Source of the DNA: a bacterium
GTDB taxonomy: Bacteria; Planctomycetota; UBA1135; UBA2386
DNA: 64,000 nucleotides
Reading direction: 5' to 3'
Assembly (NCBI GenBank): GCA_024743115.1
Contig: JANSXC010000001.1
Location: forward strand, 117,628-181,627
Part shown: positions 5,076-40,005 of the stretch, one piece after another
Numbering within the stretch: position 1 is the stretch's first letter
How the letters are laid out: every line of letters begins with the position of its first letter
Translations under genes and position numbers: made by a program
Notes under the pieces: model-generated
What the model saw: the letters and a program-made list of their open reading frames with translations, nothing else
Databases searched by the model: none
What the model was told of the DNA's origin: nothing

Positions 5076-5257
5076 GATTGGTTTCCTGAAGATCGAGGGC
5101 CGCCGGTTCGCGGCCGCCCTCCACACGGAATCCATCACCGTCGCCCCTCACGACGTTCTGGTTTTTCTCTCCGGAGTGTGTCGTCGACCCACCAATGGGG
5201 CCGCGGCCAGAGCCGGCGGTTGCCCATGCGCGGGCCGCCCGGGAGAATGCGAAGCCG

Positions 5258-5842
5258 ATGGATGCCTCCGCCGTCACGCTGCTGCTCGCCCGGGTCGAGG
5301 AAGGGGACGAGACCGCGACCGACGAGCTCTATCGCGTGGCCTACGACGATCTCCACGCGCGTGCGGGCAAGATGATCGGTGCCGGGGCCGACAACACGCT
5401 GCAGGCGACGGCGCTCGTTCACGAGGCCTGGTTGCGGTTGCGAGGTGCCGGCGGCGATGGCCTGGCGAGCCGGGCGCACTTTCTCGGGGTCGCGGCGAAA
5501 GCGATGCGGTCGGTGCTGATCGACCATGCCCGCAGCAAGCACGCGCAGAAGCGCGGTGGCGGCGCGCACAAGCTGCTGCTCGACGAGGCCCTCGTAGCCT
5601 ACGAGGAGCGGGCGATCGACGTGGTTGCGCTCAATGAAGCGCTCGAACAGCTGCAGCAGCTCGACGAGCGCAAAGCGCGGATCGTCGAGCTGCGATTCTT
5701 CGGCGGGCTGTCGAACGATGAAGTCGCGGCCGTTCTGGGCGTCAGTGTCGCCACCGTTGAGCGCGGCTGGACCACCGCGCGCGCCTGGCTGCGCGGCCAG
5801 CTGGGAGACGCGCCGGGCCCGGGGGGCGACCATCGACCCTGA
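5258..5842 (+). CDS. ECF sigma factor, TIGR02999 / ECF43-like (Ser/Thr-kinase-coupled type) - sigma A
   Basis: Track ORF 5195-5842, started at the ATG at 5258 (MDASAVTLLLARVEEGDETATDELYRVAYDDLHARAGKMIG...NTLQATALVHEAWLRL, region 2). Region 4 is RIVELRFFGGLSNDEVAAVLGVSVATVERGWTTARAWLRGQL. A kinase gene follows immediately. Confidence 0.85.
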   Translation: MDASAVTLLLARVEEGDETATDELYRVAYDDLHARAGKMIGAGADNTLQATALVHEAWLRLRGAGGDGLASRAHFLGVAAKAMRSVLIDHARSKHAQKRGGGAHKLLLDEALVAYEERAIDVVALNEALEQLQQLDERKARIVELRFFGGLSNDEVAAVLGVSVATVERGWTTARAWLRGQLGDAPGPGGDHRP

Positions 5843-8357
5843 CGGATTCGGTCGCGTCTGCGACGCGTTCGAAGCGGCGTTGGACCTCTCGGGTGCGGAC
5901 CGCGCGGCCTACGTCGCGGCGGCGTTCCCCGAGGACGCCGAGTTGCAGCGCGAACTCGAACGGATGCTCGCCGGTCACGAGTCCGATCCGGAGTTTCTGC
6001 GGACGCCCGGGGCAGCAACGCTCGTGGCCGCCGAGGCGACCGGCGAACAGCGCGCGATCGGGCTTGGCCCCGGTGACCGGGTCGGCGACTTCGAACTCGT
6101 GCGTGTGCTGGGATCGGGCGGCATGGGCGTCGTCTTCGAGGCGCGCCAGCTGCAGCCGCAGCGCACCGTCGCGCTCAAGACGATGCGCGCGGGGCTCGGT
6201 GCGGGCGTCGACGCGCGGCGGTTCGGCGAGGAGTCGCGGCTGCTCGCGCGGTTGAGTCATCCGGGTATCGCGCAGGTGCTGGCCGCGGGCGTTCTCGAGG
6301 AGGGGGCCGGTGGATTGCCGTGGTTCGCGATGGAGTTCGTGCCCGGCGCGCGCCCGCTGGACCGGTTCGTTGCCGCCGAGCACCCATCCTGGCCGCAACG
6401 CCTGCAGCTCATACTTCAGGTTTGCGACGCGATTTCGCATGGCCATCTCCGTGGCGTCGTGCATCGCGACCTCAAGCCGGACAACCTGCTCGTCTCCGCC
6501 GAGTCGCGCGTAAAGGTCATCGACTTCGGCATCGCGCGCGCCACCGAGGGCGATGAAGTGCACCTCACGACACAGGGCAAGCTGATCGGCACGCTGCCCT
6601 ACATGGCGCCGGAGCAGATCGAGGGCGATCGGGATGCGATCGACGTGCGCACCGATGTGCACGCGATCGGTGCCGTGCTCTTCCAGGTCCTGACGGGGCG
6701 GCCACCGTGGCCCGTCGACGAGTCTTTCAGCGCCCTCGCGCGCCGGATCGTCGAGCAGGAGCCGCCGCGTCCGAGCCAGGTCGCGGCCGGGGTGTCGCGG
6801 GAGCTCGATTGGATCGTGCAGGCCGCGATGGCCAAGGAGCCCGAGCGTCGCTACCAATCGGTGGCCGAGCTCGCGAACGATCTGCGGCGTTTTCTCGCGC
6901 ACGAACCGCTCGTCGCGGGACCACCGAGCGCAGCCTACCGGGCGCGCAAGTTCGTGCGGCGTCACAAGACGCTGGTCGCGGCGTTCTTGATCCTCGTGCT
7001 AGGCGCGTTCGGCACCGGTTTCGGGCTGCTCGAAGCGCTCGACAAACAGGCGGAGGCGGTTGCCGCGAAGACGGACGCCGAGGAGACCGCGGCGCGCGCG
7101 CTGGCGCAGAACAAGTATCTCGAACGCATGCTCGGTGCGGCTGATCCGTTCGGGCTGGTCACCGTGACGCGCGAGACCACCGTTGCGGAGATGCTCGACG
7201 CCGCGAGCCAGGAGATCGGCGGCGCGTTTCCCGATCAGCCCGACGTCGAAGCCGCGACCCGGCTCTTGATCGGGCTGACCTATCGCGGTCAGGGGCGGTA
7301 CGAAGCGGCGGCGGAGCACTTCGCGGTCGGTCTCAGAATGTATCGCGAGCAGCACCCCGACGGTCACGCCGACGTCGCGCGGTCTCTGCGGCTGCTCGGC
7401 TCGGTGCGCTCGTCGCTCGGAGGCCACGACGAGGCCTTGGCGCTGCTTCGCGAGGCGCTCGCGATGGAGGAGGAACTGCGCCAGCACGAGGGCGTGGAAG
7501 CCCGGGAGTTCGTCCGCACGCACGGCAGTCTTGCCGTTGCGCTGATCCGCGCGAAGCGTTTCGAAGCGGCCGAGAAGCACGCGCGGTCGGCCATCGCCGA
7601 GCTGCGCGCGGCCTACCCCGAGGCCGAGGAGGACCTCGCGATCCTGACCGTGAATCTCGCGAAGATCCAGCGCGCGCGCGGTGACGAGGCCGGCGCGCTC
7701 GCAAGCTACCGGCACTGCGTCGAGGTCTTCGAACGCGTGCTCGCGCCGGATCATCCGAACATCGGGCTCGCGAAGAACAACCTCGGCTTTCTGCTAGCAG
7801 CGCTCGGTCAGAAGCAGGAGGCCGAGCCGATCCTGCGCGCGGCGGTGGCCAACCTGCGCTCCGCGCTGCCGGACCCGCACTCGACGGTCGCGGATGCGTG
7901 CCTCAATCTATCGACGGTGCTCGGGCCGAACGGCAAGGGCGACGAGGCTGTGGCAATGGCGCGTGAGTCGGTGCGCATTTGCCGTGGCGCGCTCGGCGAG
8001 GACCACCCCGACTACGCCAACTCCGTCAACAACCTCGCCTACGTGCTGTGTGACCTCGAGCGGTGGCCGGCGGCCGGCGTCGAGTTCGAACGGCTCGTCG
8101 AGTACTTCCGCCGAACGGCAAGCGCAACGCACCCGCGCGTCACGCTCAATCGCGCGTATGCGCTCGAGTGTGTCGGTTACGCGGATCCCGCGACCGCGTT
8201 GACGAAGCTGAGTGCGCTGTTCGACACGCGCGCCGCCGAGCATGGGGCCGACGAGGAGGTGGCCCAGGCGATCGCGCGCTGCGGCGTGCGGCTCTGCCGG
8301 CATCACCGGGACGCTGCAGGGCTCGCGACGTGGCAGGGGCGACTCGCGAAGGACTGA
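5832..8357 (+). CDS. Ser/Thr protein kinase (Hanks type) with one TM helix and C-terminal TPR region - kinase A
   Basis: Track ORF 5625-8357. Kinase motifs: GSGGMGVVFEA, VALK, HRDLKPDNLL, DFGIAR, GTLPYMAPEQ. TM helix: LVAAFLILVLGAFGTGFGLL. About 430 aa of TPR-like repeats follow (NNLGFLLAALGQKQEAE, NNLAYVLCDLERW). The conserved N-terminal helix (IDPDGFGRVCDAFEAALDL...) begins at about 5832, where the codon is ATC. Canonical alternatives are GTG 5745, TTG 5757 and TTG 5880, so the 5' end is uncertain. Confidence 0.85.
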   Translation: MDPDGFGRVCDAFEAALDLSGADRAAYVAAAFPEDAELQRELERMLAGHESDPEFLRTPGAATLVAAEATGEQRAIGLGPGDRVGDFELVRVLGSGGMGVVFEARQLQPQRTVALKTMRAGLGAGVDARRFGEESRLLARLSHPGIAQVLAAGVLEEGAGGLPWFAMEFVPGARPLDRFVAAEHPSWPQRLQLILQVCDAISHGHLRGVVHRDLKPDNLLVSAESRVKVIDFGIARATEGDEVHLTTQGKLIGTLPYMAPEQIEGDRDAIDVRTDVHAIGAVLFQVLTGRPPWPVDESFSALARRIVEQEPPRPSQVAAGVSRELDWIVQAAMAKEPERRYQSVAELANDLRRFLAHEPLVAGPPSAAYRARKFVRRHKTLVAAFLILVLGAFGTGFGLLEALDKQAEAVAAKTDAEETAARALAQNKYLERMLGAADPFGLVTVTRETTVAEMLDAASQEIGGAFPDQPDVEAATRLLIGLTYRGQGRYEAAAEHFAVGLRMYREQHPDGHADVARSLRLLGSVRSSLGGHDEALALLREALAMEEELRQHEGVEAREFVRTHGSLAVALIRAKRFEAAEKHARSAIAELRAAYPEAEEDLAILTVNLAKIQRARGDEAGALASYRHCVEVFERVLAPDHPNIGLAKNNLGFLLAALGQKQEAEPILRAAVANLRSALPDPHSTVADACLNLSTVLGPNGKGDEAVAMARESVRICRGALGEDHPDYANSVNNLAYVLCDLERWPAAGVEFERLVEYFRRTASATHPRVTLNRAYALECVGYADPATALTKLSALFDTRAAEHGADEEVAQAIARCGVRLCRHHRDAAGLATWQGRLAKD

Positions 8358-20531: not shown

Positions 20532-21152
20532 TCAGTCGAGTGCGAGGTCGCCGCGCCGGAGTGCGAGAACCTGGTCGGCCAGGCGCTTCAGGGCGCGGTT
20601 GTGGCGCATGCGTGCCGCGTTCTCACCGATGCCGCGCTGCTCGGCCAGATCCTTGAACGAGCGCTTGTCCCAGAGTCGTTCGTGGATCAGTCGCTGATCG
20701 TCCTCGTCCAGCAGGTCGATCGCGAGGCGGATCCACTCGCGACGTTCGGCGCGGTCGAGCGCCTGACTCGGTCGCGTGACGTCGCGCGCGGGTGGGTCGA
20801 GGTGCAGCACGCTGTCCTGGCCGATCGGCCGTTCGCGCAGGTGGTCGCGGCGCTGACGGCGGAGCCACCGTTGGCCGTCGACGAGGTCACTGGTGACGAT
20901 GCGGGCGATGAGTGCGCGGAAGTGTTCACGATCGTTGACCTCGAACCGCGGGCCGAGCTCCATGACCTGCATCATCGCGTCCTGCACGACGTCGATCGAC
21001 TCGACCTTGTCACGGAGGCGGCCGGCGAGCTTCTTGCGCACGTAGCCGTGGATCCACGGCAGGTTGGCGCGAATCAACTCGTCGAGTGCTGCACGATCGC
21101 CTTCGTGCCAGCGCCTGAGCAGCGCGAGGGTATCGCCGGAGCCCGCGGTCAT
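20532..21152 (-). CDS. ECF sigma factor - sigma C
   Basis: Track ORF 20532-21368, started at the internal ATG at 21152 (MTAGSGDTLALLRRWHEGDRAALDELIRANLPWIHGYVRKKL...). Region 2: VVQDAMMQVM...HFRALIARIVTSDLVDGQRW. Region 4: DQRLIHERLWDKRSFKDLAEQRGIGENAARMRHNRALKRL. It lies 31 nt downstream of kinase C. Confidence 0.8.
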   Translation of the reverse strand: MTAGSGDTLALLRRWHEGDRAALDELIRANLPWIHGYVRKKLAGRLRDKVESIDVVQDAMMQVMELGPRFEVNDREHFRALIARIVTSDLVDGQRWLRRQRRDHLRERPIGQDSVLHLDPPARDVTRPSQALDRAERREWIRLAIDLLDEDDQRLIHERLWDKRSFKDLAEQRGIGENAARMRHNRALKRLADQVLALRRGDLALD

Positions 21153-21183
21153 GGCGGGATTGGACGGCACCGCTCCGGTGCGG

Positions 21184-24165
21184 TCAACGCAGCCGTTCTC
21201 GGAGTCGCGAGAAGTCGGGATGGTCCGCGAGCGGCGCGAAAACCTTCTGCCCGAGCAGTTGCTGCGCCTGGGCCGGATCCTCGGGCAGCGCGCGCGCCAG
21301 CCAGCCGCACGCGAGGGTCTGCAGTCGGCGGCGTTCGTTCGCGTCGGCAGCGAACCCGCACGCTTCACAAAGCAGACGAACCGCGGTGAGCTGCGTGCGC
21401 TGGTTGTCCGGCGCCAGCGCGACCTTGCCGTTCGCCGCCCGTTCGAGCAGGTTCGGATCGGCGGTCTTGCGACCCAGGATCGCGATCAGGTTCCAGTGGA
21501 CACCGAGGTGGCTGCGGGCGTCGCGGTAGGTGGGCGCGTCGTCGATCACCGTGCGCTGCAGCGAGATCGCTTCCTCGAGGAGCGGCAGGGCCGTGATCGG
21601 GTCCTCCTGGCTCTGATTCAACAACCAGTTGGAGCGATCGCTCAGGATTGCGCCCAGCTCCGTGCGGTAGCGCGCCGAGTCAGGCATCGCGGAGCACAGC
21701 TCGCGGGCGATCCCGAGCGCGGCCGTGAAGTGACCTTCGAGCTTCTCGACGTCGCGGTCGATCTTCATGTATTGGATCTGCGCGAGAATGCGGTGCGCCT
21801 TGGCGAGCTGGAGTCGATCGACGGGATCGGCGTCGGGGCGCGTGGCCAGGGCTTCGGCAGTGGCGAAGTGATCCACCATCGCAATGGCCGCGGTGCGGAC
21901 CGAGCGCTGTCGGATGGACTGAGCGTGGGCCGTTTGCAGCTGCCGGGCGAGCAGCTCGCGACGGAACAACGGATCGTTCGGGTGATCCTGGACGAGACTC
22001 TGCAGTTGCTCGAACGCTTGCTGTTGCGCGGCGCGGCCGTGCCCTTCGATGCCGAGCTGGCGGTAGACACCGCTCAGGCCGAGCAACGTACGGGCGTGCC
22101 AATAGCGGAAGGGGGCGACGCCGGGTTGGCGTTCGATGAGACCTTCGAACAGAGTCTTCGCGCGCTCGAAGTCCTCGCGAGCGGGGGTGAGGCGGCCGCG
22201 GGCGAGTTGCACCCAGGCGAGGTGATGGACGCCCTCGGCGTGAAGTCGGGCGACCAAGAGGTCGTCGCGATCGTCGTCGATGAGCTCTTCGAGTATGGCG
22301 ACGACCTCGGTGGCCAGGGCTTGTGCCTCGTCGCTCGGATGGCGGCGCAATGCATGGCGTCGGCGGCCGTCGAGGACGCTGGCGCGCAGTAGGCGCACCC
22401 GTCGTTGTTCTCCCGTATCGAGTTTTGCCAGCGGCACGGCGTCCAGCCATCTGGTGGCAGCTGTCAGGCTCTCCGTCGCGGCGTCGAAGTCGTTGAGGTC
22501 GAGCCGCACGTGCGCGCGCATCTGGTGCAGGGTGGCGAGTTCGAGCGGTGCGTGATTGTTGACCGGGCCGGACTGGAGCGCTGCTGTGAGCAGCGGCAAC
22601 GCGGCATCGAGTGACGCGAGTGCGGCCCGCGGCTGCGACAGCCGACGCTGCATTCTCGCGAGCTTGGTCCGGGCGCGCGCGGCCTGGAAACGCAGCACGG
22701 GGTCGTCGTTCGCGATCGCGAGGAAGTCGTCGCACAGTGCGCTCGCATCGCGGAGGAGCTGCAGGCGCAGGCCTTCGGTGTGCGGGATTGCTTCCAGTTC
22801 GAACTCGGTGATTCGCGCATAGAGGGTCGCGACGCTGGCGCGCGCCTGGTCGAGCAGGCTGCGCGCCAGATCGCGTTGCTCGAGCGTGCGCTGCTGTTCG
22901 ATGGCGAGCGCGTCGCGCGCGGCCTTGAAGTGGATGGTGGCGACGATCGGGGCAATCACGACGAGCACGAACGCGAGCAGGGCGGCGACCGTCGTCGCGG
23001 GCTTACGCCGTGCGAACCGCACGAGCTTGTGCGGCGTGGAAATCGGGCGGGCCGCGATCGGTTCGCGCGCCAGGAAGCGGCGCAGGTCGATGGCCAGTTC
23101 GGCGGCGGTGTAGCGGCGCCGCGGATCCTTCTCGAGCGCTTTGAGTGCGATGGTCTCGAGGTCGCGCGGTGCCTGCGGGCTGCGGGCCCGCACGCTCGGC
23201 GGTTCGTGACTCGCGATCGCCGTCATGAGCTGGCGGGTGCCGTTGCCCGCGAACGGCGGTGTCAGCGTCAGCAGTTCGTAGAGCACGACGCCGAGAGAGA
23301 ACACGTCCGAGCGGCCGTCGATCGGTGCCCGGCCGGCTTCGATCTGTTCCGGGCTCACGTACTGTGGCGTTCCCGCGAAGTCGCCCGTGAGGGACAGGCT
23401 CTCGGCCTCGAGGTCCTTCGCGAGGCCGAAGTCCACGAGGCTGAGTCTGCCATTGTCGCCGATGATCACGTTCTGTGGCTTCACGTCGCGATGGACGACC
23501 CCGCGTTCGTGCGAGTAGGTCAGGGCCTCGGCAAGGCGGGCCGTGAGCTCGGCGATCTCGTCGAAGTAGCGGCCGGTCGCGGTCTCGCTGCCCGTGATCG
23601 TGGTCACGCCCATGTCGCGACTGCCCAGGCGCGACGCGTTGCCGCGGACCTTGGCTTTGACCGCGTCCATGACTGCGCGCAGGCTGCGGCCCTCGATGAG
23701 CTCCATCGCGATGAAGTGCGTGCCGTCGTGCTCGCCGATCGCGTGGATACGGACGATGTCGGGGTGCACGAGTTTGGCCGCGGCTGCGGCTTCGCGGCGG
23801 AACCGTTCGAGCTGCCGGCGCGACAGCGTCAGTGCGGGCGCCAGCACTTTGAGGGCGACGCGTCGTCCGAGCGACTCCTCCGTCGCCTCGTAGACGACGC
23901 CCATGCCGCCGCGCCCGAGTTCGCGACCGAGGCGGTAGTCGCCCAGTCGGCGGCAGCCATCGCCGCCCACTGGCTCTCCGGGGCGATCGTCGAGCATCGG
24001 CTCGAGCAAGTCGCGCAACCCGGCGTGGCGATCGAGGTAGTCGTCGACCGACTCGCTCGCTGCGCTGTCATCCGCGCGCCGATCGATGTAGGCCTCGACC
24101 GCATCCGCGAGGCGATCGAGGTCATCACCCTCGGGTGTGTTCGATGATACGTTCGAGTCGGTCAC
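21184..24165 (-). CDS. Ser/Thr protein kinase with TM helix and ~560-aa TPR/helical-repeat region - kinase C
   Basis: 993-aa ORF with a GTG start at 24165. Kinase motifs: GRGGMGVVYEATE, VALKVL, HRDVKPQNVII, DFGLAKD, GTPQYVSPEQ. TM helix: TTVAALLAFVLVVIAPIVATI. A long helical repeat region follows. Confidence 0.85.
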   Translation of the reverse strand: MTDSNVSSNTPEGDDLDRLADAVEAYIDRRADDSAASESVDDYLDRHAGLRDLLEPMLDDRPGEPVGGDGCRRLGDYRLGRELGRGGMGVVYEATEESLGRRVALKVLAPALTLSRRQLERFRREAAAAAKLVHPDIVRIHAIGEHDGTHFIAMELIEGRSLRAVMDAVKAKVRGNASRLGSRDMGVTTITGSETATGRYFDEIAELTARLAEALTYSHERGVVHRDVKPQNVIIGDNGRLSLVDFGLAKDLEAESLSLTGDFAGTPQYVSPEQIEAGRAPIDGRSDVFSLGVVLYELLTLTPPFAGNGTRQLMTAIASHEPPSVRARSPQAPRDLETIALKALEKDPRRRYTAAELAIDLRRFLAREPIAARPISTPHKLVRFARRKPATTVAALLAFVLVVIAPIVATIHFKAARDALAIEQQRTLEQRDLARSLLDQARASVATLYARITEFELEAIPHTEGLRLQLLRDASALCDDFLAIANDDPVLRFQAARARTKLARMQRRLSQPRAALASLDAALPLLTAALQSGPVNNHAPLELATLHQMRAHVRLDLNDFDAATESLTAATRWLDAVPLAKLDTGEQRRVRLLRASVLDGRRRHALRRHPSDEAQALATEVVAILEELIDDDRDDLLVARLHAEGVHHLAWVQLARGRLTPAREDFERAKTLFEGLIERQPGVAPFRYWHARTLLGLSGVYRQLGIEGHGRAAQQQAFEQLQSLVQDHPNDPLFRRELLARQLQTAHAQSIRQRSVRTAAIAMVDHFATAEALATRPDADPVDRLQLAKAHRILAQIQYMKIDRDVEKLEGHFTAALGIARELCSAMPDSARYRTELGAILSDRSNWLLNQSQEDPITALPLLEEAISLQRTVIDDAPTYRDARSHLGVHWNLIAILGRKTADPNLLERAANGKVALAPDNQRTQLTAVRLLCEACGFAADANERRRLQTLACGWLARALPEDPAQAQQLLGQKVFAPLADHPDFSRLRERLR

Positions 24166-24216: not shown

Positions 24217-26613
24217 TCACTTTACCACTGGGACGGACAGCCGCTTCGAACCGTAGAACAGGGTGCCGTCGAACATCCAGTCCTGGAAGTAGAACGTCAT
24301 CGGGTCGAGCCATTCGGGCAGCGCGATCGTGTAGGTCGCGGTCGGGCCGTACTGGAAGGGCAGCGTCGTGAGGTAGCCAGGGCCGGACGCCTGGACGAGG
24401 AGGCGGCAGCCAGGGAACACGCTCGGGTGCACGATCGGCAGGTTCGTCGTGCCGACCGCAACGATCACGAAGTGGCCGACCGGCGTGCCGTTGTTGTCGA
24501 TCCGTAGGCGGTTGAACTCCGAGCCGATTTGCTGGTTGCCGAGCCACTCGATGGTCGCGAGGCTGCAGGCCTGACCGTTCGCCGTGTTCACGGTCGTGAC
24601 GTATTCGAGCGTGTGGCCGTAGATCGGGTGCGACGGCGACGCGGCGCCGTAGGCGAGCAGGAAGTCGTCGTGGTCGTTGTCGAACACGCACGCCACTGGG
24701 GTGACCGGTTCACCGGCCTGGTAGAACAGCTGCACATCAGCCTCGGTCGGGGCGCCGTTGTAGCCGACACGCGCGCAGTAGGCCGCGCCCGCGCCCGCCG
24801 GTACGATCGAGCGGTAGGAGGCTACCCAGTGCGATTCGTCCCGGGTGTCGTAGGCGAGCCCGGTGGCCTCGAGGCGGCGGTTGTTCGAGGCGTAGAGCGT
24901 CTTGGGCTGGTGCACGTTGATCAGCGGACCGTTGGCGCCGTGCAGCCAGTTGAAGCGTTCGATACGGATCTCCTTGCCGGCGATGGTCGTGGTCTTCTGC
25001 GGCGTCGACGCGACGTCGACGGTCGCGAAGGTGACGGCGTAACGGCCGTCGGACCCCTCGACGACCGGGCCGAGCTGGTGGTGCGTCCCTTGGGCGTTGA
25101 GGTCGGAGAACCAGCTGCCCGATCCGACGTTGCCGTCGTTGTCGATGCGGCGTGCCAGCACGTCCCAGTCGTCGGTCGCGATCGGGTTGTTGTACACCTG
25201 CATCGCACAGACCCAGGAGTAGCTGGCGCCACCTTCGGCGACCTTGTTCACCGACGGGCGTTCGCAGTCGAGGATCGCGCTGTCGCGGATCACGAACGTC
25301 TGTCCGAACGAGCCGTTGTTGCCGTTCGCCGGTTCGAAGATCACGCCGTTGACGGCGGATGTGCTCGTGTTGGACATGGCGCCGACGCCGTTGTTCTCGC
25401 TCTGGAAGACCACGATGGCCTCGTCGCCGCTCCGATACGATTCGACGCCGCCAACGTCTGGGCGCCAGTCGTTGCGGCCCGGGTTGTTCAGCGCGGCGTA
25501 GCCGGTCTCGAGCGTGTTGTTGCCTTTGGCGTGCGCGTGGCAACGAACGCGGCTGAAGGTCGGATTGGCGTTGAAGAAGTAGCGCCGCATGGCGATGACC
25601 CAGCGATCCGCGCCGCCAACGAATGCGCAGGACGCGGCGTCCGTGCTCCAGTTCGTCGTGAGGTCGGTATAGACCTGTGACGAGCCGCTGTAGTCGTCGT
25701 CCATCAGGCGCGCGATGAGGTCACCATCCGTGGCCGAGGCGTAGCGGATGTAGGCCATCATGACGTTGTCGTTGTTCGACTCGTCGTCCCGTCCGATGTC
25801 GATCGCGCCGACTTCGGTGCCGGTGATGACCTGCACGCGCGTCAGCAGTGGATCGACCACGACTGGCAGCGCCGCGTTGGCGAGCCAGGCGCCGGGCACC
25901 GTCAGCGTGATACGCCCTTCGGTGTAGCCCGTCGTGAGGGGGATGCTGCGACCGCCGGCGTCGAAAGCGATCGCGGCGCCGTAACGCGTGATCGGGTTGC
26001 CGTTGGCGTCGGTGAACGTCAGCGCCTGGTGGGCGGCGGGAAGTTCCGGGGCGCGGAGCCCGGTCGTGACCGCGCCCGTGATCACGAGGTCGCCGTCACC
26101 GGGCAATGCATCGACGACGAACGTCTGTTCGAGGCCATCGGTGCGCACGTCGTAGGCCTCGATGATGCCACCCAGTCGGTATTCGAAGCGATACTCGGAG
26201 TGCACGGCCGTCGGCTGCTCGGTCGCGAGTTCGAACGCGCCGACCGTCGCGGAGACCGTGCGCCACGCGAGCGGTTGGTTCTGCGGGTAGTCGCGGCCGA
26301 GGTAGGGCACGAACGTCATGCCGTTGTGAAACGACGCCTTGTAGCCGGGACCCGCGGCCCAGATGCCGTAGGCCTGGTCGCCGTCGGTTGCGGCGGTGTG
26401 GATCGGAGTCAGGTCGCCCGGGAGTGCAACGGCCTCCGCGGGCCGGTTCGGGATCATCCACTCGTCGGCCGTGGTCGCCGGGCTGTGGATCTGGCCGCCT
26501 TGGGTTTGAGGCGCCGGTTGCGGCAGGAAATCCGGATCCTGGGCGGGAAGGACTGGCAGAGCGACGCTCGCAAGCAGCGCGAGATCGAGAACGCGAATAC
26601 TGAAGGTGTTCAT
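24217..26613 (-). CDS. Large secreted protein of unrecognised fold carrying the shared C-terminal module
   Basis: Track ORF 24217-26697, started at the ATG at 26613 (MNTFSIRVLDLALLASVALPVLPAQ signal peptide). 798 aa with a beta-rich composition and no repeat family I recognise. The last ~121 aa (nt ~24217-24582) are the shared module. It ends 52 nt upstream of kinase C on the same strand. Confidence 0.75.
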   Translation of the reverse strand: MNTFSIRVLDLALLASVALPVLPAQDPDFLPQPAPQTQGGQIHSPATTADEWMIPNRPAEAVALPGDLTPIHTAATDGDQAYGIWAAGPGYKASFHNGMTFVPYLGRDYPQNQPLAWRTVSATVGAFELATEQPTAVHSEYRFEYRLGGIIEAYDVRTDGLEQTFVVDALPGDGDLVITGAVTTGLRAPELPAAHQALTFTDANGNPITRYGAAIAFDAGGRSIPLTTGYTEGRITLTVPGAWLANAALPVVVDPLLTRVQVITGTEVGAIDIGRDDESNNDNVMMAYIRYASATDGDLIARLMDDDYSGSSQVYTDLTTNWSTDAASCAFVGGADRWVIAMRRYFFNANPTFSRVRCHAHAKGNNTLETGYAALNNPGRNDWRPDVGGVESYRSGDEAIVVFQSENNGVGAMSNTSTSAVNGVIFEPANGNNGSFGQTFVIRDSAILDCERPSVNKVAEGGASYSWVCAMQVYNNPIATDDWDVLARRIDNDGNVGSGSWFSDLNAQGTHHQLGPVVEGSDGRYAVTFATVDVASTPQKTTTIAGKEIRIERFNWLHGANGPLINVHQPKTLYASNNRRLEATGLAYDTRDESHWVASYRSIVPAGAGAAYCARVGYNGAPTEADVQLFYQAGEPVTPVACVFDNDHDDFLLAYGAASPSHPIYGHTLEYVTTVNTANGQACSLATIEWLGNQQIGSEFNRLRIDNNGTPVGHFVIVAVGTTNLPIVHPSVFPGCRLLVQASGPGYLTTLPFQYGPTATYTIALPEWLDPMTFYFQDWMFDGTLFYGSKRLSVPVVK

Positions 26614-26879
26614 GTCTGGTCCTCGCCAGCGCTCTCGAGACCGCACACGGATTCGCCGAGAAATCGCCGGGGTCGGCGCGAGCCCCCGGCCGGCCACACG
26701 GTCGCGGAAACCCCGCTACCATCGCGGTCATGGAACTCCCCAGCTCGATCGGCGCCTGTGGTTTCCTCGGAGGTGTTCCTGGTCGCTCAGGACACGTGGG
26801 GCTTCGATCCGGATCACGCCCTCGGACGTCGAGACCGGGGCCAACTGGCCGTTCGTCGTCCACGGACCCGAGTGACCGG

Positions 26880-28145
26880 ATGAACCGTCTCCGTTGCTGG
26901 CTCGCGGGTTGTCTGGCGGTCGGCTTCTTCGCCGGTCTGGTTGCGGGTCAGACGTCGCCGGCCCCGCTACCCAAGGCGGTGTACGGCAAGGTCGCGGGCG
27001 TCCTCGTGGGGGCCGATGGTACGCCGGTCCCGGCTGGCGAGGAGCTGCAGGTTCGCGTCGAGATCCATGCCCCGGGATTCAACCTCGGGGCGTTCGACCT
27101 GATCGAGATCGGCAAGGGTGGAGTGCTCCGGTACGAGAACTGGGCGCTCGCCGGCATGGGCTTTCCGCTGGGGCCAGGAAACCGGCGCTGGTTGCACTTT
27201 CGGCGCATGCGGGACGGGGTTCTGGAGCGCGCCTACGTCGCGGTGCGCCAGGACCTCGGCACCGTGCGACTGCGGAACGAAGAGCGCCTCGTCGCCGGGC
27301 GGGTCGTCGACGAGCTCGGGGCAGCCGTCCTGCGGCAAAGCGTTCGGGTCAACCTGGCTCCGGTGGCGGCTCACGATCCGGGGATCCTTAGCCGGTTGCA
27401 GCCGCGGGTCGTGCTGGCTGCGGACGGGTTCGAGATCTGGGGTTTTCGCGCGCCGGGCGAGTTCGTGCTCTCCGCCGGCTACGTCTACCATGGCCCGTCG
27501 GGCACGCCGGTGCCGCTGCCGGTCGGCGCGACCGACGTCGAATTGGTGGTGCCGGCGACCGGGCACCTGCAGGTCAAGCTGGAGAACCCGCCGGGCTTCC
27601 CCGAGACGCGTGCGGTGTGGGCCGTGCTGCGCGATCTCGAACGCGACGAGGTAACGCGCCGTTGGCTCATTTCCGGTGGCGCGACGAACCTGCGCTTGCG
27701 ACTCGGGCGCTACGCCGTCACGTGTGAGCTCAACGGTCGCGAAGTCGCGAAGCTCGGCGAGCAGCTCATCCAGCACAACGCGACCACCGAGGTTGCGGTC
27801 GATCTTCGGGACACGACGCGAGTCGTGCGAATCGAGGTCCTCGGCCCGGATCGCGCTCCCATCCTGCCCGCTCGGGTCAGGGTCGCCGGTTCGCCGGACC
27901 AGCCGTTCTCGCGGCGGCGTCAACGCGTCGACGGTCGCTGGCGTCACGTGATCGCCCTGCCCGTCCAACGCGATGTGGTCGACATCGAATTGCCGTACTA
28001 CGTGGACCCCGCCGGCAAACCGCAACTCGGCGTCGGCCCCATGAAGTTCGTGGTCCGTGGCGTCGCGGGTGACTGCACGCTCGTGTTGCAGCGCTCGGCA
28101 GCCGCGGGCGAGCCGTGGACCCTCGCCGAGGAGCGGCCGAAGTAG
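26880..28145 (+). CDS. Hypothetical secreted protein (beta-sandwich-like composition)
   Basis: Track ORF 26730-28145, started at the ATG at 26880 (MNRLRCWLAGCLAVGFFAGLVAGQ signal peptide). The segment VYGKVAGVLVGADGTPVPAGEELQV resembles the start of a carboxypeptidase-regulatory-like domain. It lies directly upstream of the membrane-tethered sigma gene. Confidence 0.6.
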   Translation: MNRLRCWLAGCLAVGFFAGLVAGQTSPAPLPKAVYGKVAGVLVGADGTPVPAGEELQVRVEIHAPGFNLGAFDLIEIGKGGVLRYENWALAGMGFPLGPGNRRWLHFRRMRDGVLERAYVAVRQDLGTVRLRNEERLVAGRVVDELGAAVLRQSVRVNLAPVAAHDPGILSRLQPRVVLAADGFEIWGFRAPGEFVLSAGYVYHGPSGTPVPLPVGATDVELVVPATGHLQVKLENPPGFPETRAVWAVLRDLERDEVTRRWLISGGATNLRLRLGRYAVTCELNGREVAKLGEQLIQHNATTEVAVDLRDTTRVVRIEVLGPDRAPILPARVRVAGSPDQPFSRRRQRVDGRWRHVIALPVQRDVVDIELPYYVDPAGKPQLGVGPMKFVVRGVAGDCTLVLQRSAAAGEPWTLAEERPK

Positions 28146-28207
28146 CACGATCGGTCGCGCCGCGAAAATCCGCGAAGGAAACGGGTCGGCGGAGGTCTGG
28201 TTCTTCG

Positions 28208-31200
28208 ATGGCGCGAACGCCCGACGTTACCGAACTGTGCGAGCTCGTTGCGGCGGAGCCGTTCGTGCGGGCTCTGGCCCGCGATCTGGTCGCGGACGAG
28301 GCCGACGAGGTCGTGCAGCAGGCCTACCTGTTGGCCTTGTCGAGCCGCCCCGACGGGCTGCGGTCACCGCGCCAGTGGCTCGCGCGAATCGTTCGCAACG
28401 TCGCGTTCGATCTGCGGCGAGGACGGCGGCGGCGGCGGGACCACGAAGCCGCGGCGGCGCGTGAGTTGACGGTGTCTTCGGCTGATCTGCAGCTGCGCGA
28501 AGAGCGGCGCGCGGAGGTCGTGGCAGCGGTCGATGCGTTGCCTGAGCCGATGCGAACCTCGGCGGTGCTGCGGTACTACGATGGTCTCGCGCCGCGGCAG
28601 ATTGCGCAGAAGCTCGGGGTGCCCGTCAGCACGGTCTGGAGTCGGCTGCACAAGGCGTTGACCCTCCTGCGTGAACGCCTGGACCGCGAGCATGCCGGCG
28701 ATCGGCGCGCGTGGCTCTTGCCGTTTCTCGGGCTGGCGAATGGTGCCTTGCCGTCGGCCCCGGTCTGCGAGCCTTCGCCGTCGCCATCGTCATCAACTCC
28801 ATCCGTGCCAGTGTCGCAGGTGCCGGCAGCGCAGTTGATCGGAGAGTCCGCTCGCGCCATCTGGCCGAGTCTTGCAGCGGGAGTCGCAACCATGACCACG
28901 AAGGGGAAACTCGGAATCATCTTGGGACTGGTTACCGCCGGTGCGATCGCAATCCTGGCGACCCTCGGAGAGGGGGCGCCGACCGAGCGAGCGCAACCGC
29001 CGCGGGACGCGGCAGCGCCCGCGCGCGTTGCTGCCCTGGATGCGGGTGGCGCCGACGAATCCGAGCCGACACTGACCAGGGAGGCGCCAGCGGACGGCAC
29101 TGGGGGCGTGGTTCCCGCCCGAGCGTCTACCGCCACGGGGGCGTTGCGGGTTCGGGTGGTCTATGGCGACGAGCGCAGCGTTGCGGCGGGGGTTCGACTC
29201 CTGCTGTCGTCACAGGCCGCGGCTTCGCCGCGGATGCTCGTCACGGACGCGGCTGGCACCGCCCGGATTGCGGATCTCGAGCCGGGGAGGTTCGAGATCT
29301 GTCCGGCGGTCAACGTCTGGGAGGGTGAGAGCGTGGCCGTGGTAGCCGGCGAGGAGGCCGAAGTTGTCGTGGCTCTGAAGGCCGGGCTCCGGGTCGACGG
29401 AGTGGTCGTCGATGCGGGCGGCGTACCCGTGGCCGACGCGACCGTGCTCGTCAACCACATCGGCATGGAGGGGGATGCGCGACCGGTGACCACCACGGAC
29501 GCGAACGGGCGGTTCGGGTTGGTCGGACTCGCGCGAGTCAGCCGCCTCGGCGCTCGGGCCGCCGGGCACGCGCCGTCACGGCTCTACTCGTTGAACGCCA
29601 AGGACGGCAGTTCGCTGACCGTGCGGTTGGAGTTGGCCGGTCCCGGAGGCGCTGTCGAGGGGCGGGTGTTCGCGGCGGATGGTGAACCGTTGGCGGGTGC
29701 GCTCGTGCGGGTCGGCACGGACCCGGGTGAGACCGTCGTGCGGCCGGACGGCGGGTTCTTGCGCAGCGCGGCGGCGTTCGCCGTTCGCACCGACGTCGCC
29801 GGGCGCTTTCGCGCGTTCGGGATAGCGCCGGGGGAGCAGAGATTGGTGGTGATCGCGAGTGGGCACTCGCCATGGGAATCGACGGTGACCGTGCCGCCGA
29901 AGGGAACGGCGGTGGTCACCGTGCGGCTGGACGCGGGCGTGCGCGTCACGGGTTTGGTTCGCGGGGCGGATGGGCAGGTGGTGCCGGGCACGCGCATCGA
30001 GCATGGCAAGGGCGAGAAGCGCCGCAGTGCCGTCGCGGACGAGCAGGGGCGGTTCGAGCTGGTGGGGCTGCCGGTCGGTGAGTTCGAACTGGTGGCTGTT
30101 TCAGAACGGGCGGGACGCGCCACGACTACGCTCACGGCGGTCGCGGGTCAGGAACTGATCTGGAACCCGACGCTGACGCGCGGTCTGGAGTTGTTCGGTG
30201 ACGTGGTCGATCACGCCGGCGAGCCGATGGCGAACGTGATGCTCATCGTGAGCTGCCGCGCTCGGCAGTGGAGCGCCATGGCCCAGACGGATGCGGGCGG
30301 TCGCTTCGAGGTTTCGAACTGTCCGGCCGCGACGACACTCGAGGTCGAGGTGCATCATCGGGGATACCGGTCGCAGCGACTCGAAGCGGTGGATCCGACG
30401 GTTGGACGGCTCCGCGTGCGGCTCGAAGCCCAGGCGCCGGGGACCGCGTCGGTACGCGGGCGGGTGGTGAATGCGGCGGGACTGCCACTCGCCAACGCGA
30501 CCGTGATGCTCGTTGGCGAGTCGGAGGACTCCGGTGGTGGCCGCCGGATGACGGGACCGGATGGTGTCTTTCAGATCGGGCCGACGATTCCCGGGAAGTT
30601 CCAGCTGCTGGTCCGGGCCAATGGTCATGCCGCCATGCGGACGGCCTGGCGGGTGTTGGCCGCGCACGAGACGTGGGAGGCCGGGGATGTCGCGCTGAGC
30701 CGCGGCGGGCACGTCGAGATCGCGGTGACCAACCCGCCGATCACCGAGGGCACGCGGTTCTGGATTCGCGGTGCGGATGCCCGAGGGCGCGCGCATGTCG
30801 ACGTGAGCAAGGGGATGACTCGATCCGCCCCGCTCGTGGCCGGGGACTACGTTCTCGGCGTGCGCGGGCCAGGGGTTGCCGCGCAGGCGCTGCCCGTGAA
30901 GGTCGAGGATGGGCGTGTGACCGAGGTGGAGGTCACGCTGCGATCCGGCGTCGACACCCGCTTCCGGGTGCAGTTGCCGCCCGGGTTTGCCGGTCGACGA
31001 TTCGTGAGGCTCACGATTCGCGTGGTCGATGGGGGCGGGGCCGGGTCTCCTGGTGACCTCGTGACTGATCGGTGGCGTTATTCGCGAGGGACCGGCGCCA
31101 TCGAGTTGGCGGAGGCTCTCACCCCGGGGCACTACGTGGTCGACGTGCGCGCCGAGAGTGGGGGGCACGGTCGCTCGGAGTTCCGCGTCCGCGCGGAACC

Positions 31201-31234
31201 GGCGGCTGACCCCGTGCGCGTCGTGCTGCGATGA
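28208..31234 (+). CDS. ECF sigma factor fused via one TM helix to ~8 extracytoplasmic carboxypeptidase-regulatory-like (CarboxypepD_reg-type) repeats
   Basis: Track ORF 28115-31234, started at the ATG at 28208. Region 2: EADEVVQQAYLLAL...PRQWLARIVRNVAFDLRRGRRR. Region 4: LPEPMRTSAVLRYYDGLAPRQIAQKLGVPVSTVWSRLHKALTLLRERL (nt ~28208-28687). A P/S-rich linker follows. TM helix: KLGIILGLVTAGAIAILATL (nt ~28907-28966). About 750 aa of repeats follow, of the type G.V.d..G.P..gA.V........tD..GRF.l.gl..G.y (for example TDANGRFGLVGL, ADEQGRFELVGLPVGEFELV, TDAGGRFEVSN, GPDGVFQIGPTIPGKFQLLV). Confidence 0.8.
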   Translation: MARTPDVTELCELVAAEPFVRALARDLVADEADEVVQQAYLLALSSRPDGLRSPRQWLARIVRNVAFDLRRGRRRRRDHEAAAARELTVSSADLQLREERRAEVVAAVDALPEPMRTSAVLRYYDGLAPRQIAQKLGVPVSTVWSRLHKALTLLRERLDREHAGDRRAWLLPFLGLANGALPSAPVCEPSPSPSSSTPSVPVSQVPAAQLIGESARAIWPSLAAGVATMTTKGKLGIILGLVTAGAIAILATLGEGAPTERAQPPRDAAAPARVAALDAGGADESEPTLTREAPADGTGGVVPARASTATGALRVRVVYGDERSVAAGVRLLLSSQAAASPRMLVTDAAGTARIADLEPGRFEICPAVNVWEGESVAVVAGEEAEVVVALKAGLRVDGVVVDAGGVPVADATVLVNHIGMEGDARPVTTTDANGRFGLVGLARVSRLGARAAGHAPSRLYSLNAKDGSSLTVRLELAGPGGAVEGRVFAADGEPLAGALVRVGTDPGETVVRPDGGFLRSAAAFAVRTDVAGRFRAFGIAPGEQRLVVIASGHSPWESTVTVPPKGTAVVTVRLDAGVRVTGLVRGADGQVVPGTRIEHGKGEKRRSAVADEQGRFELVGLPVGEFELVAVSERAGRATTTLTAVAGQELIWNPTLTRGLELFGDVVDHAGEPMANVMLIVSCRARQWSAMAQTDAGGRFEVSNCPAATTLEVEVHHRGYRSQRLEAVDPTVGRLRVRLEAQAPGTASVRGRVVNAAGLPLANATVMLVGESEDSGGGRRMTGPDGVFQIGPTIPGKFQLLVRANGHAAMRTAWRVLAAHETWEAGDVALSRGGHVEIAVTNPPITEGTRFWIRGADARGRAHVDVSKGMTRSAPLVAGDYVLGVRGPGVAAQALPVKVEDGRVTEVEVTLRSGVDTRFRVQLPPGFAGRRFVRLTIRVVDGGGAGSPGDLVTDRWRYSRGTGAIELAEALTPGHYVVDVRAESGGHGRSEFRVRAEPAADPVRVVLR

Positions 31235-31268
31235 GCGCGTCGGCCTTCGGAAGCCTGGTAGCGGAGAT

Positions 31269-31967
31269 TTATCCCAGCTGGCGAGCGAGGAACTGCGCGG
31301 TCCTGCCCCACAGGTCGTGCCAGTCCGCGGCGCGCATCATGTGGCCCGACTCCGGATAGACGTGCAGCTCGGCGCCGTAGGCGGCTGCGAACGCCCGACC
31401 CGGCGCGGGGTCTACGTTCTCGTCCCGGCCGGCGAGGCCGAGCAGCAGTGGTGGGCGGCCGGGTGTGATCGTGTCCGGGGCGACGAGATCGGTTCCCGTC
31501 AGGAGCGCCGCGACCGCGGCGAACGGGCTCGGGGGCCGCAGTGTCGCCAGTGCGGCGAACCCGCCCATGGAGATGCCGACCAGTCCGACCCGGTCGATGC
31601 CGCGGGATCGGCGGTGGTCGGCGAGATCGAGAACCTCCTCCGCGTGCTGCTGCGCGATTCCGAGGATGGCTGCGCGGCGGGAACTCGGGTCGAGAGCATC
31701 GAGTTCGGTGAGGCGTCCATCCTGCCGCTCCCCGTGTCCCGGGGCATCCGGCAGCAGCACCTCGGTGTCCGCGGTGACGAGCGCGCGGGCATCGTCGCGA
31801 TGCACCGCGCCACTGGCGCCGTAGCCGTGTAGCAGAATCACCGCGGCCTTGGCGACTCCGGGGCAGGGCAGGCGCTCGACGGCGTCGCGCGGGATTCCGG
31901 ATGGCGCCGTCTGGAACGGATCAGCTGTTTCTCGACGCCGTGAGTTGGGGATCTTCGCTGCCGCCAT
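31269..31967 (-). CDS. Alpha/beta hydrolase (dienelactone hydrolase / carboxylesterase-like)
   Basis: 232-aa ORF with an ATG start. Motifs: AAVILLHGYG, nucleophile elbow GISMGG, C-terminal YPESGHMM. The annotated start overlaps the SulP 3' end by 47 nt, so the true start may be further downstream. Confidence 0.75.
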   Translation of the reverse strand: MAAAKIPNSRRRETADPFQTAPSGIPRDAVERLPCPGVAKAAVILLHGYGASGAVHRDDARALVTADTEVLLPDAPGHGERQDGRLTELDALDPSSRRAAILGIAQQHAEEVLDLADHRRSRGIDRVGLVGISMGGFAALATLRPPSPFAAVAALLTGTDLVAPDTITPGRPPLLLGLAGRDENVDPAPGRAFAAAYGAELHVYPESGHMMRAADWHDLWGRTAQFLARQLG

Positions 31968-39567: not shown

Positions 39568-40005
39568 ATGAAGAAGAACGGCACGTTCCTGGTCGCGATG
39601 ACCTTTGTTGCTGCCACCGCCGTGGCGCTGCTCTGGACGCAGCGAGCCAACGCCGGCGTGGCGCAAGATCCGCAGTCCGCCGGGGCACCGGTCGTGCGGC
39701 AGTCGAAAGCCAACTCGGACACCTGGCACTTCGGGGTCGTGGACGGCTGTTTTCATAGCGTGTGGGTGGGGCCACGGCTCGAGGACGCGGCAGCGGGTCC
39801 GTTCCGGTTCGTGAACCTGACGTTCCACGACTTCTCGGTCGCGGACTGCTCCGGTGTCTGGGCCGCGATCGTGCGACCCGACGGGCGCGAACCGATCGCG
39901 GTCGACAGTGGGGCGGTCAAGATCGCGGTGCTGCCCGCCGTGGGGCTCACGTGGGGTGAGGTCGACGAGCGCACGGACCTCGCCGTCGACCTGCGGCGCT
40001 ACTGA
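39568..40005 (+). CDS. Small secreted protein (145 aa), unknown function
   Basis: The ATG at 39568 is preceded by GGAGAGCGGAG. Signal peptide: MKKNGTFLVAMTFVAATAVALLWTQRANA. No family recognised. Confidence 0.5.
   Translation: MKKNGTFLVAMTFVAATAVALLWTQRANAGVAQDPQSAGAPVVRQSKANSDTWHFGVVDGCFHSVWVGPRLEDAAAGPFRFVNLTFHDFSVADCSGVWAAIVRPDGREPIAVDSGAVKIAVLPAVGLTWGEVDERTDLAVDLRRY

Follow-up and report, generated by a model that had tools for sequence, protein, structure and literature searches.

How does a sigma factor that is built into a membrane protein work, and does its gene make one protein or two? This question is raised by a planctomycetal gene on contig JANSXC010000001.1 (assembly GCA_024743115.1), of which a stretch of 64,000 nucleotides (nt) was analysed; this whole stretch is called the window, all coordinates are window positions, and the gene lies on the plus strand. 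The gene (28208..31234; NCBI MCR9243488.1) is a full-length open reading frame (ORF) for a membrane-tethered extracytoplasmic function (ECF) sigma factor of 1008 amino acids (aa), in which the sigma domains are followed by a single transmembrane (TM) helix and a long external rod. Fusions of a sigma factor and a sensor across the membrane are the simplest conceivable link from envelope to transcription, and to our knowledge only one or two of them have been studied. Membrane-spanning ECF fusions as such are of an already described kind, and what is new is a conserved signature of internal translation initiation. This internal start and a promoter-like element abutting the main start were absent from an earlier account made from the letters alone (hereafter the sequence-only reading), and they change how the gene probably works. 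From the conservation of an internal Shine-Dalgarno (SD) sequence and start codon, the gene probably makes both the tethered sigma and a sigma-less rod.

The internal start was analysed across homologues. Among GTDB species-representative genomes, 197 stretches encode relatives of the protein, and 79 loci (L001-L079) were kept besides the window's own locus; tblastn with the sigma part found 86 sigma domains in them. Directly before the TM helix the family shares the motif G-[VAG]-x-x-M-[TS]-x-K-x-K, which reads GVATMTTKGK in the window, with ATG 28892 as the Met codon. An SD-like GGAG (28880..28883), formed by the Gly225 codon GGA and the first G of Val226, stands 8 nt before this ATG. Since both lie inside the ORF, ribosomes should also start there, and the predicted short isoform, from M229 to the stop (28892..31234), would be a sigma-less protein of 780 aa consisting of MTTKGK, the TM helix, the stalk and the rod. 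Stand-alone CarboxypepD_reg proteins carry N-terminal anchors similar to that of this predicted product.

For the nucleotide tests, 60 of the 84 scorable homologues could be anchored on G-x-x-x-[M/V/L/I]. First, the codon at the anchored start is ATG in 48 of the 60, GTG in 9 of the 10 with Val, and TTG in the one homologue with Leu, whereas GTG makes up 42% of Val codons overall; the two exceptions to a start codon have GTG immediately after. Second, the Gly that precedes it by four codons is encoded by GGA in 52 of 60, although GGA accounts for 12.5% of the background (binomial 1e-38), and a control conserved Gly uses GGA in only 2 of 51. Third, GGAG occupies positions -12..-9 in 50 of 60, compared with 6 of 659 (0.9%) for ATGs elsewhere in frame (Fisher 6e-60). 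The third-codon positions that flank GGAG are variable across homologues, which means that synonymous sites are saturated and that the kept A of GGA is under selection, rather than reflecting shared ancestry alone. GGAG also peaks at offsets -12..-9 at crude candidates for the true gene starts of the same loci, and the internal spacing is therefore the native SD spacing.

The surrounding mRNA has the properties of a start as well. Along the gene, mRNA structure is predicted to dip only at the internal site (mean -10.6 vs about -18 kcal/mol in 50-nt windows), and the site is predicted to be less structured (z>0) in 96% of 57 genes. Lys outnumbers Arg by 94:1 in the seven residues after the internal start, against 1108:7539 in the whole proteins; this corresponds to the A-rich early codons that genuine starts favour in GC-rich genomes. 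The pattern was replicated in 17 new metagenome sequences, with ATG in 14, GGA in 14 and GGAG at -12 in 12 of them, and it is shared by a distant member (L081, about 30% identical), where the sequence is GGA GGT ctc cta ctt ATG. An SD at native spacing, a start codon and unstructured, A-rich mRNA are thus conserved together, beyond what the protein needs.

Three points weigh against two products from this gene. About 30% of the family is without the G-x-x-x-M/V anchor or GGAG, and the site is common, not universal. SD sequences appear infrequent at the ordinary genes of these genomes, being present at 27 of 439 crude start candidates. Finally, the low GC and the lysines of the site also meet a demand on the protein, namely the positive-inside rule.

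These points lead to the alternative that survives best, although we regard it as unlikely: only the full-length tethered sigma is made, and GGAG and ATG are the relic of a captured gene or have another role, either a translational pause before membrane insertion or a protein constraint on G-x-x-x-M-T-x-K-x-K. A sigma gene that captures a downstream gene is indeed predicted to contain leftover start signals (PMC7671368), the K-x-K motif agrees with the positive-inside rule, and a signal missing from some 30% of members would suit a relic. However, a relic should have decayed, and GGA is kept in 52 of 60 although sigma identities are 38-60% and the flanking third positions are randomised. A protein constraint leaves unexplained why GGA is preferred over GGC (2 of 51 at the control Gly), why GTG encodes 9 of 10 Val and TTG the Leu, and why K is chosen over R by 94:1. 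A pause element, for its part, needs no start codon at a fixed distance of 8 nt. A single product with a relic SD-ATG is thus disfavoured. Programmed frameshifting was also considered as the role of GGAG and was rejected: no conserved slippery heptamer follows it, and an alternative plus-frame ORF (28711..29328) is open across the site, so that a shift would bring no early termination.

The origin of the site may nevertheless lie in a capture. Pinto & da Fonseca (2020) described a scenario of capture, by a sigma gene, of a gene that follows it in frame (PMC7671368), and this scenario accounts for both the origin of the linker and the presence of the SD-ATG. To judge from the conservation described above, the start signals of the captured gene are still under selection. 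In-frame internal starts occur in other bacterial genes. CheA and IF2 are two such cases. In Mycobacterium tuberculosis, long and short isoforms of ClpB are made in this way (PMC6168691). The likeness to ClpB is that an SD and a start codon within the ORF give an N-terminally truncated second protein in the same frame; the difference is that the short form here would be stripped of the whole regulatory (sigma) domain and would retain only what lies in and outside the membrane. No description of an internal start in a sigma factor or a sigma-factor fusion came up in the literature searches.

The main start, ATG 28208, is at a position consistent with the N-termini of aligned homologues, and no family-conserved SD precedes the sigma start. 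A bipartite ECF-type promoter-like element (28177..28198, plus strand), composed of GGAAAC at 28177-28182 and GGTCT at 28194-28198, ends 9 nt before this ATG. It is the sole exact match in the window (0.05 expected), where no second copy is convincing with one mismatch and none goes beyond chance. In the closest homologues, TACAG[GA]AA[AC]-N12-13-GG[TC]GTC[TC] stops 8-14 nt short of the aligned start codon, and a related element, CAG[AG]N-N13-17-G[TCA]GTC, precedes the gene in 17 of the 28 closest homologues but is present in 0.9% of control windows; the form shared with the window's gene is GGAA[AC]...GTC[TC]. One locus (L017) was left out of these counts, as its promoter region is hidden by a run of N, either masked sequence or a scaffold gap, about 60-70 nt upstream of the sigma start. 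Distant paralogues have variants such as GGGAAC...GGTGT[CT]. The combination of no family-conserved SD and an element abutting the start suggests that the latter is an autoregulated ECF promoter, giving an mRNA that would be leaderless or have a very short leader.

Some features of the window copy do not fit such a promoter well. With about 13 nt from GGAAC to GTC, the element has a shorter spacing than textbook ECF promoters, and the TACAG part is absent from the window's copy. Furthermore, GGAG occurs as GGAGG at 28191-28195, 12 nt before ATG 28208 and overlapping the -10-like GGTCT, and the long form could use it as a weak SD; its mRNA would then be unlikely to be leaderless in this copy. 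The presence of GGAGG before ATG 28208 sets the window copy apart from most homologues. Neither sigma-70 promoters nor intrinsic terminators were found in 26500-31600. Elsewhere in the window, on the minus strand at 39783-39805, there is a putative ECF-promoter-like match of a different subtype, GGAAC-N12-CGCGTCC, with an ATG (MKTA...) about 27 nt downstream of it.

The whole explanation that we favour, with moderate confidence, combines a tethered sigma made beside a second product, an autoregulated near-leaderless transcript, and proteolytic release. The long form, translated from the near-leaderless ATG 28208, would be the minor product, and the sigma-less rod the major one. Tethering would hold the sigma inactive at the membrane. 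A cue on the external rod would lead to site-1 and then site-2 (RseP-type) cleavage, by which the sigma is freed, and the freed sigma would activate its own promoter and raise the amounts of both products. The best mechanistic model for this activation, although it belongs to another family, may be IutY of Pseudomonas putida (ECF243), a hybrid of sigma, TM and periplasmic parts whose sigma is set free by Prc and RseP as a fragment of about 23 kDa (PMC5411451; PMC8999054). It is by analogy with IutY and RseA-type systems that we infer sigma release by regulated proteolysis, and this dependence on analogy weighs against that step; so does the clustering of flanking ORFs, by which no protease gene linked to the locus was found.

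Release would not be needed if the sigma worked from the membrane, as ToxR and CadC do, and if the condition of the external rod adjusted its activity, a possibility to which we give rather little credence. A disordered tether of about 20-70 residues would let the sigma reach RNA polymerase and promoters at the membrane. The tether is indeed long and disordered, neither a protease nor a degron is identifiable in or linked to the gene, and the protein has no anti-sigma domain to keep the sigma inactive. Against this, the only characterised fused sigma, IutY, requires RseP-dependent release for its activity (PMC5411451). Entry into the holoenzyme and cycling would be harder for a tethered sigma than for a DNA-binding activator, and the Ala/Gly-rich TM helices of the family seem to resemble site-2 protease substrates.

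A further step can be taken from that explanation, one that we hold only tentatively and think less probable than not: the gene is a self-reporting module, in which untagged rods are the real output and a sigma-tagged minority reports on them. Most ribosomes would use the internal SD-ATG, and a minority would use the leaderless 5′ ATG to make a sigma-tagged rod. Whenever rods suffer damage, pulling or degradation, the copies with a tag would be cleaved too and release sigma, which would re-induce its own gene, the sole conserved target. Each paralogue would then be an orthogonal homeostat for one envelope protein. We know of no description of such logic for sigma factors. If two products are confirmed, the internal start would strip sigma from most copies of the protein and set the ratio of signalling-competent to bulk protein in a new way, and internal initiation would join the ways of regulating ECF sigma factors. 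The gene also offers synthetic biology a compact, orthogonal sensor-regulator part.

All of this presupposes that the N-terminal domain is a sigma factor. Sigma region 2 (aa 17-76; 28256..28435) is matched by Pfam Sigma70_r2 with 26.6 bits (cutoff 24). Region 4 (aa 103-161; 28514..28690) is matched by Sigma70_r4_2 at aa 103-153 with 40.5 bits (cutoff 25.7) and by Sigma70_r4 with 28.8 bits. The NCBIfam model for sigma70-ECF, TIGR02937, reaches 63.2 bits (cutoff 42.9), and all subfamily NCBIfam models stay below their cutoffs. The Pfam search gave no match to sigma region 1 or 3, and it is regions 2 and 4 in the absence of regions 1.1 and 3 that define an ECF (group 4) sigma. The signatures of regions 2.2-2.4 and 4.2 (VVQQ.YL, W-L-A-R-I-V-R-N and the helix-turn-helix) are present and conserved family-wide. 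The invariant and near-invariant columns of the sigma part of the alignment include no Cys.

It could be proposed that this domain is a degenerate sigma-like fold which serves a surface protein as a cytoplasmic interaction module, in view of a Sigma70_r2 score barely over its cutoff (26.6 vs 24) and of subfamily NCBIfam models none of which reaches its cutoff. We consider this very improbable, because TIGR02937 is clearly over its cutoff, because the signature residues of regions 2.2-2.4 and 4.2 are kept throughout the family, and because a conserved ECF-type promoter-like element stands upstream of the gene.

The reality of the fusion needed testing, since the linker has a weaker GC content at third codon positions (GC3), dropping to 0.68-0.74 over 28658-28900 while the frame stays open. 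The open frame 28115..31234 includes ATG 28208, from which 1008 codons run to a sole, terminal stop, and an ORF identical over its 1008 aa is present in a Logan assembly made independently from run SRR18498042. From all 86 sigma hits of the genome and window loci the frame runs on for 350-1050 aa and includes a TM helix, contig-end cuts excepted, and a hydrophobic helix follows sigma4 by 13-53 aa in all 84 homologous ORFs long enough to score. A search of 5.8 billion proteins found about 90 proteins of 850-1400 aa that pair a sigma with CarboxypepD_reg, mostly labelled Planctomycetota. In an exhaustive search, 128 representatives of 50% identity clusters match aa 1-185 at E<=1e-30. Of the 150 top cluster representatives for the sigma domain, 127 are at least 300 aa long; the other 23 are fragments or frameshifted, and most of these still contain the pre-TM motif. 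In metagenome loci, 47 sigma hits were checked for split genes, and the short ORFs among them are explained by a contig-end artefact (L098) and by a frameshift within the first beta-sandwich (L105). No true split gene was found among the genome loci, the metagenome loci or the short database entries. A split-gene or artefact reading was thus ruled out by the 86 genome-locus hits, the 47 metagenome hits, the 23 short entries and the independent assembly. That the fusion is an artefact or a pseudogene, and that the real genes are a stand-alone sigma and a separate secreted protein beginning at M229, could be argued from the weaker GC3 across 28658-28900 and from an SD and ATG placed exactly where a separate gene would begin, but given the identical ORF in an independent assembly, one open frame in 86 of 86 genome and window hits bar contig-end cuts and likewise in metagenome loci, and short database entries that are fragments, the idea is hardly tenable and an assembly artefact can in practice be dismissed.

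The full-length protein was modelled with AlphaFold2 on the basis of 39 homologues, with a mean predicted local distance difference test (pLDDT) score of 83. The model shows sigma helices to aa 161 (region 2 helices with pLDDT 84-95; helices 115-161 above 90), a helix at 166-174, disorder over 176-237 and a TM helix at 234-252; outside the membrane, disorder over 252-306 is followed by about eight all-beta beta-sandwiches at 311-1006. The first element after sigma4 is the motif H-x-G-D-R-R-A-W-L-L-P-[FL] (aa 162-174; 28691..28729), defined by the alignment and predicted as a short helix. In the alignment of 14 closer homologues, G164, R166, R167, A168, W169, L170, L171 and P172 are invariant; the family form is H-G-G-D-R-R-A-W-L-L-P-L, and the window copy has Ala at the first Gly. 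The pLDDT of the helix block 166-174 falls from 84 to 53. The window motif, HGGDRRAWLLPL, stands directly after sigma4, is near-invariant in homologues and is modelled as a short helix. The DRRAWLLP helix is possibly a built-in sigma4-masking element or a degron.

The motif is followed by a Pro/Ser/Ala-rich cytoplasmic tether (aa 175-224; 28730..28879), predicted disordered (pLDDT <50) and with weaker GC3, which varies in length and sequence among homologues. No anti-sigma Pfam family (zf-HC2, RskA, FecR) matches the protein at E<=1, and the linker at aa 160-233, which holds one His and one Cys, has no HxxxCxxC motif. The single TM helix (aa 234-252; 28907..28963) coincides with the only hydropathy peak of the protein, at aa ~233-253, with a Kyte-Doolittle maximum of 2.41. 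Beyond it lies an extracytoplasmic low-complexity stalk (aa 253-310; 28964..29137), with pLDDT <50 over 252-306 and variable in the alignment. The rod (aa 311-1006; 29138..31225) consists of about eight tandem beta-sandwich domains of the CarboxypepD_reg/transthyretin-like type, as indicated by Pfam, the model and Foldseek. Pfam CarboxypepD_reg (PF13620) matches in seven stretches with 194.5 bits, CarbopepD_reg_2 is also matched, and the modelled rod is all-beta with pLDDT mostly >90. Foldseek matches of the rod are to pilins, SdrD B repeats, macroglobulin MG domains, the B. anthracis TIE protein and S-layer proteins, and no enzyme fold is among the matches of the beta part.

With this, the anatomy given by the sequence-only reading holds throughout. 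It had described one uninterrupted frame of 1008 codons, ECF regions 2 and 4 within aa 1-160, a Pro/Ser-rich linker free of anti-sigma features, one TM helix at aa ~234-253 and about eight CarboxypepD_reg-like repeats, and had proposed checks of the assembly, of the predicted structure and of whether orthologues retain the fusion; all of these came out in its favour, every orthologue and paralogue examined reading through into the TM helix and the extension. As a separate observation on the rod, two proteins of about 1675 aa (P0072 and P0076) carry a Peptidase_M50 (site-2 protease) domain together with CarboxypepD_reg arrays like those of the sigma protein; they are possibly cognate intramembrane proteases with the same external module.

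The protein can be compared with three kinds of known fused sigma factors. First, IutY likewise joins a cytoplasmic ECF sigma to an extracytoplasmic domain by a single TM helix, all in one polypeptide. Outside the membrane, however, IutY has a FecR-type anti-sigma domain, which communicates with a TonB-dependent receptor, whereas the exterior of the window protein is a CarboxypepD_reg rod, with no FecR (PF04773) match at E<=1 and no linked receptor gene. The two also belong to different phyla and different sigma clades, and no internal start is reported for IutY in PMC5411451, from which the word 'internal' is absent. Second, the actinobacterial ECF48, ECF52 and ECF53 (e.g. SCO4117) have TM-spanning C-terminal extensions with Pro-rich and carbohydrate-binding exteriors, and their activation by proteolysis has been predicted and partly shown (PMC8999054; PMC5826349). 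Their C-terminal extension crosses the membrane as it does here, but they have a zinc-finger anti-sigma-like segment between sigma4 and the TM helix, while the window linker is without HxxxCxxC or zf-HC2, and they are from another phylum.

Third, large and diverse C-terminal extensions have been described for planctomycetal ECFs (PMC7671368; PMC7826278). This group, with ECF57 (former ECF01-Gob), resembles the present family in its phylum, its many paralogues, its long extensions and the absence of an anti-sigma gene (PMC7826278; PMC7671368). ECF57 is described as having WD40-like repeats and two conserved Cys that link sigma2 and sigma4 (PMC8999054), and in a comparison made by description the family studied here differs in its CarboxypepD_reg arrays, in the absence of a WD40 match and in its lack of conserved sigma Cys. 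A further difference from the planctomycetal ECFs is that sigma clade and extension type go together here rather than being unrelated. The statement of the sequence-only reading that membrane-spanning ECFs are predicted and few of them characterised therefore needs qualification: its one-component reading is reasonable, but the class is less unexplored than it suggested, given IutY, ECF48/52/53 and the planctomycetal ECFs.

The gene is one of a large family, found here only in Planctomycetota, whose members encode self-contained ECF sigmas tethered to the membrane by a single pass. Nearly all genome loci are labelled Planctomycetota or planctomycete, a few are labelled just 'bacterium', and one label is inconsistent. 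CarboxypepD_reg arrays of differing length are present in 8 of 10 sampled members of the clade. There are several paralogues per genome, sometimes two or three within 15 kb. Copies of the sigma fusion are clustered within 10-15 kb on either strand, three of them in L064 and two each in L035, L056, L071, L038 and L081, which suggests local duplication. All-against-all clustering of flanking ORFs found no conserved neighbour, be it an anti-sigma, a protease or a target gene; the largest non-self clusters are antisense ORFs inside the gene or occur in at most 5-8 loci. A conserved fusion with no anti-sigma or other partner conserved alongside makes the one-component transmembrane sigma of the sequence-only reading reasonable, although it is not new as a class. 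What is defined is a coherent family, with an invariant architecture, no conserved partner genes and several copies per genome, in uncultured Planctomycetota.

Directly upstream lies an ORF for 421 aa (26880..28145, plus strand), which the sequence-only reading took to be a secreted protein of similar beta-sandwich-like start and a possible co-transcribed partner. The ORF exists, has a signal-peptide-like N-terminus and coding-type GC, and was called as a gene, but its similarity to the extension of the sigma protein is merely marginal (blastp E = 0.007). It has no Pfam or NCBIfam match and no homologue in the 79 related loci, and in the set of 5.8 billion proteins it matches itself only. Being an orphan without homologues in related loci, it is not a conserved partner, and this part of the proposal was dropped.

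Two genes upstream, on the minus strand, an 826-aa ORF (24217-26697) has homologues near sigma-fusion genes in four loci, one of them at 10824-12833 of L016. This is too sparse to call it conserved, and it could be an occasional regulon member. The window also contains two conventional ECF-like sigma ORFs, at 5195-5842 (plus strand) and 20532-21368 (minus strand), which are adjoined by large Ser/Thr kinases with TPR-like repeats at 5625-8357 (plus) and 21184-24165 (minus), respectively. Pairing of an ECF with a kinase is known from Planctomycetes. The window thus holds three sigma systems of two regulatory types.

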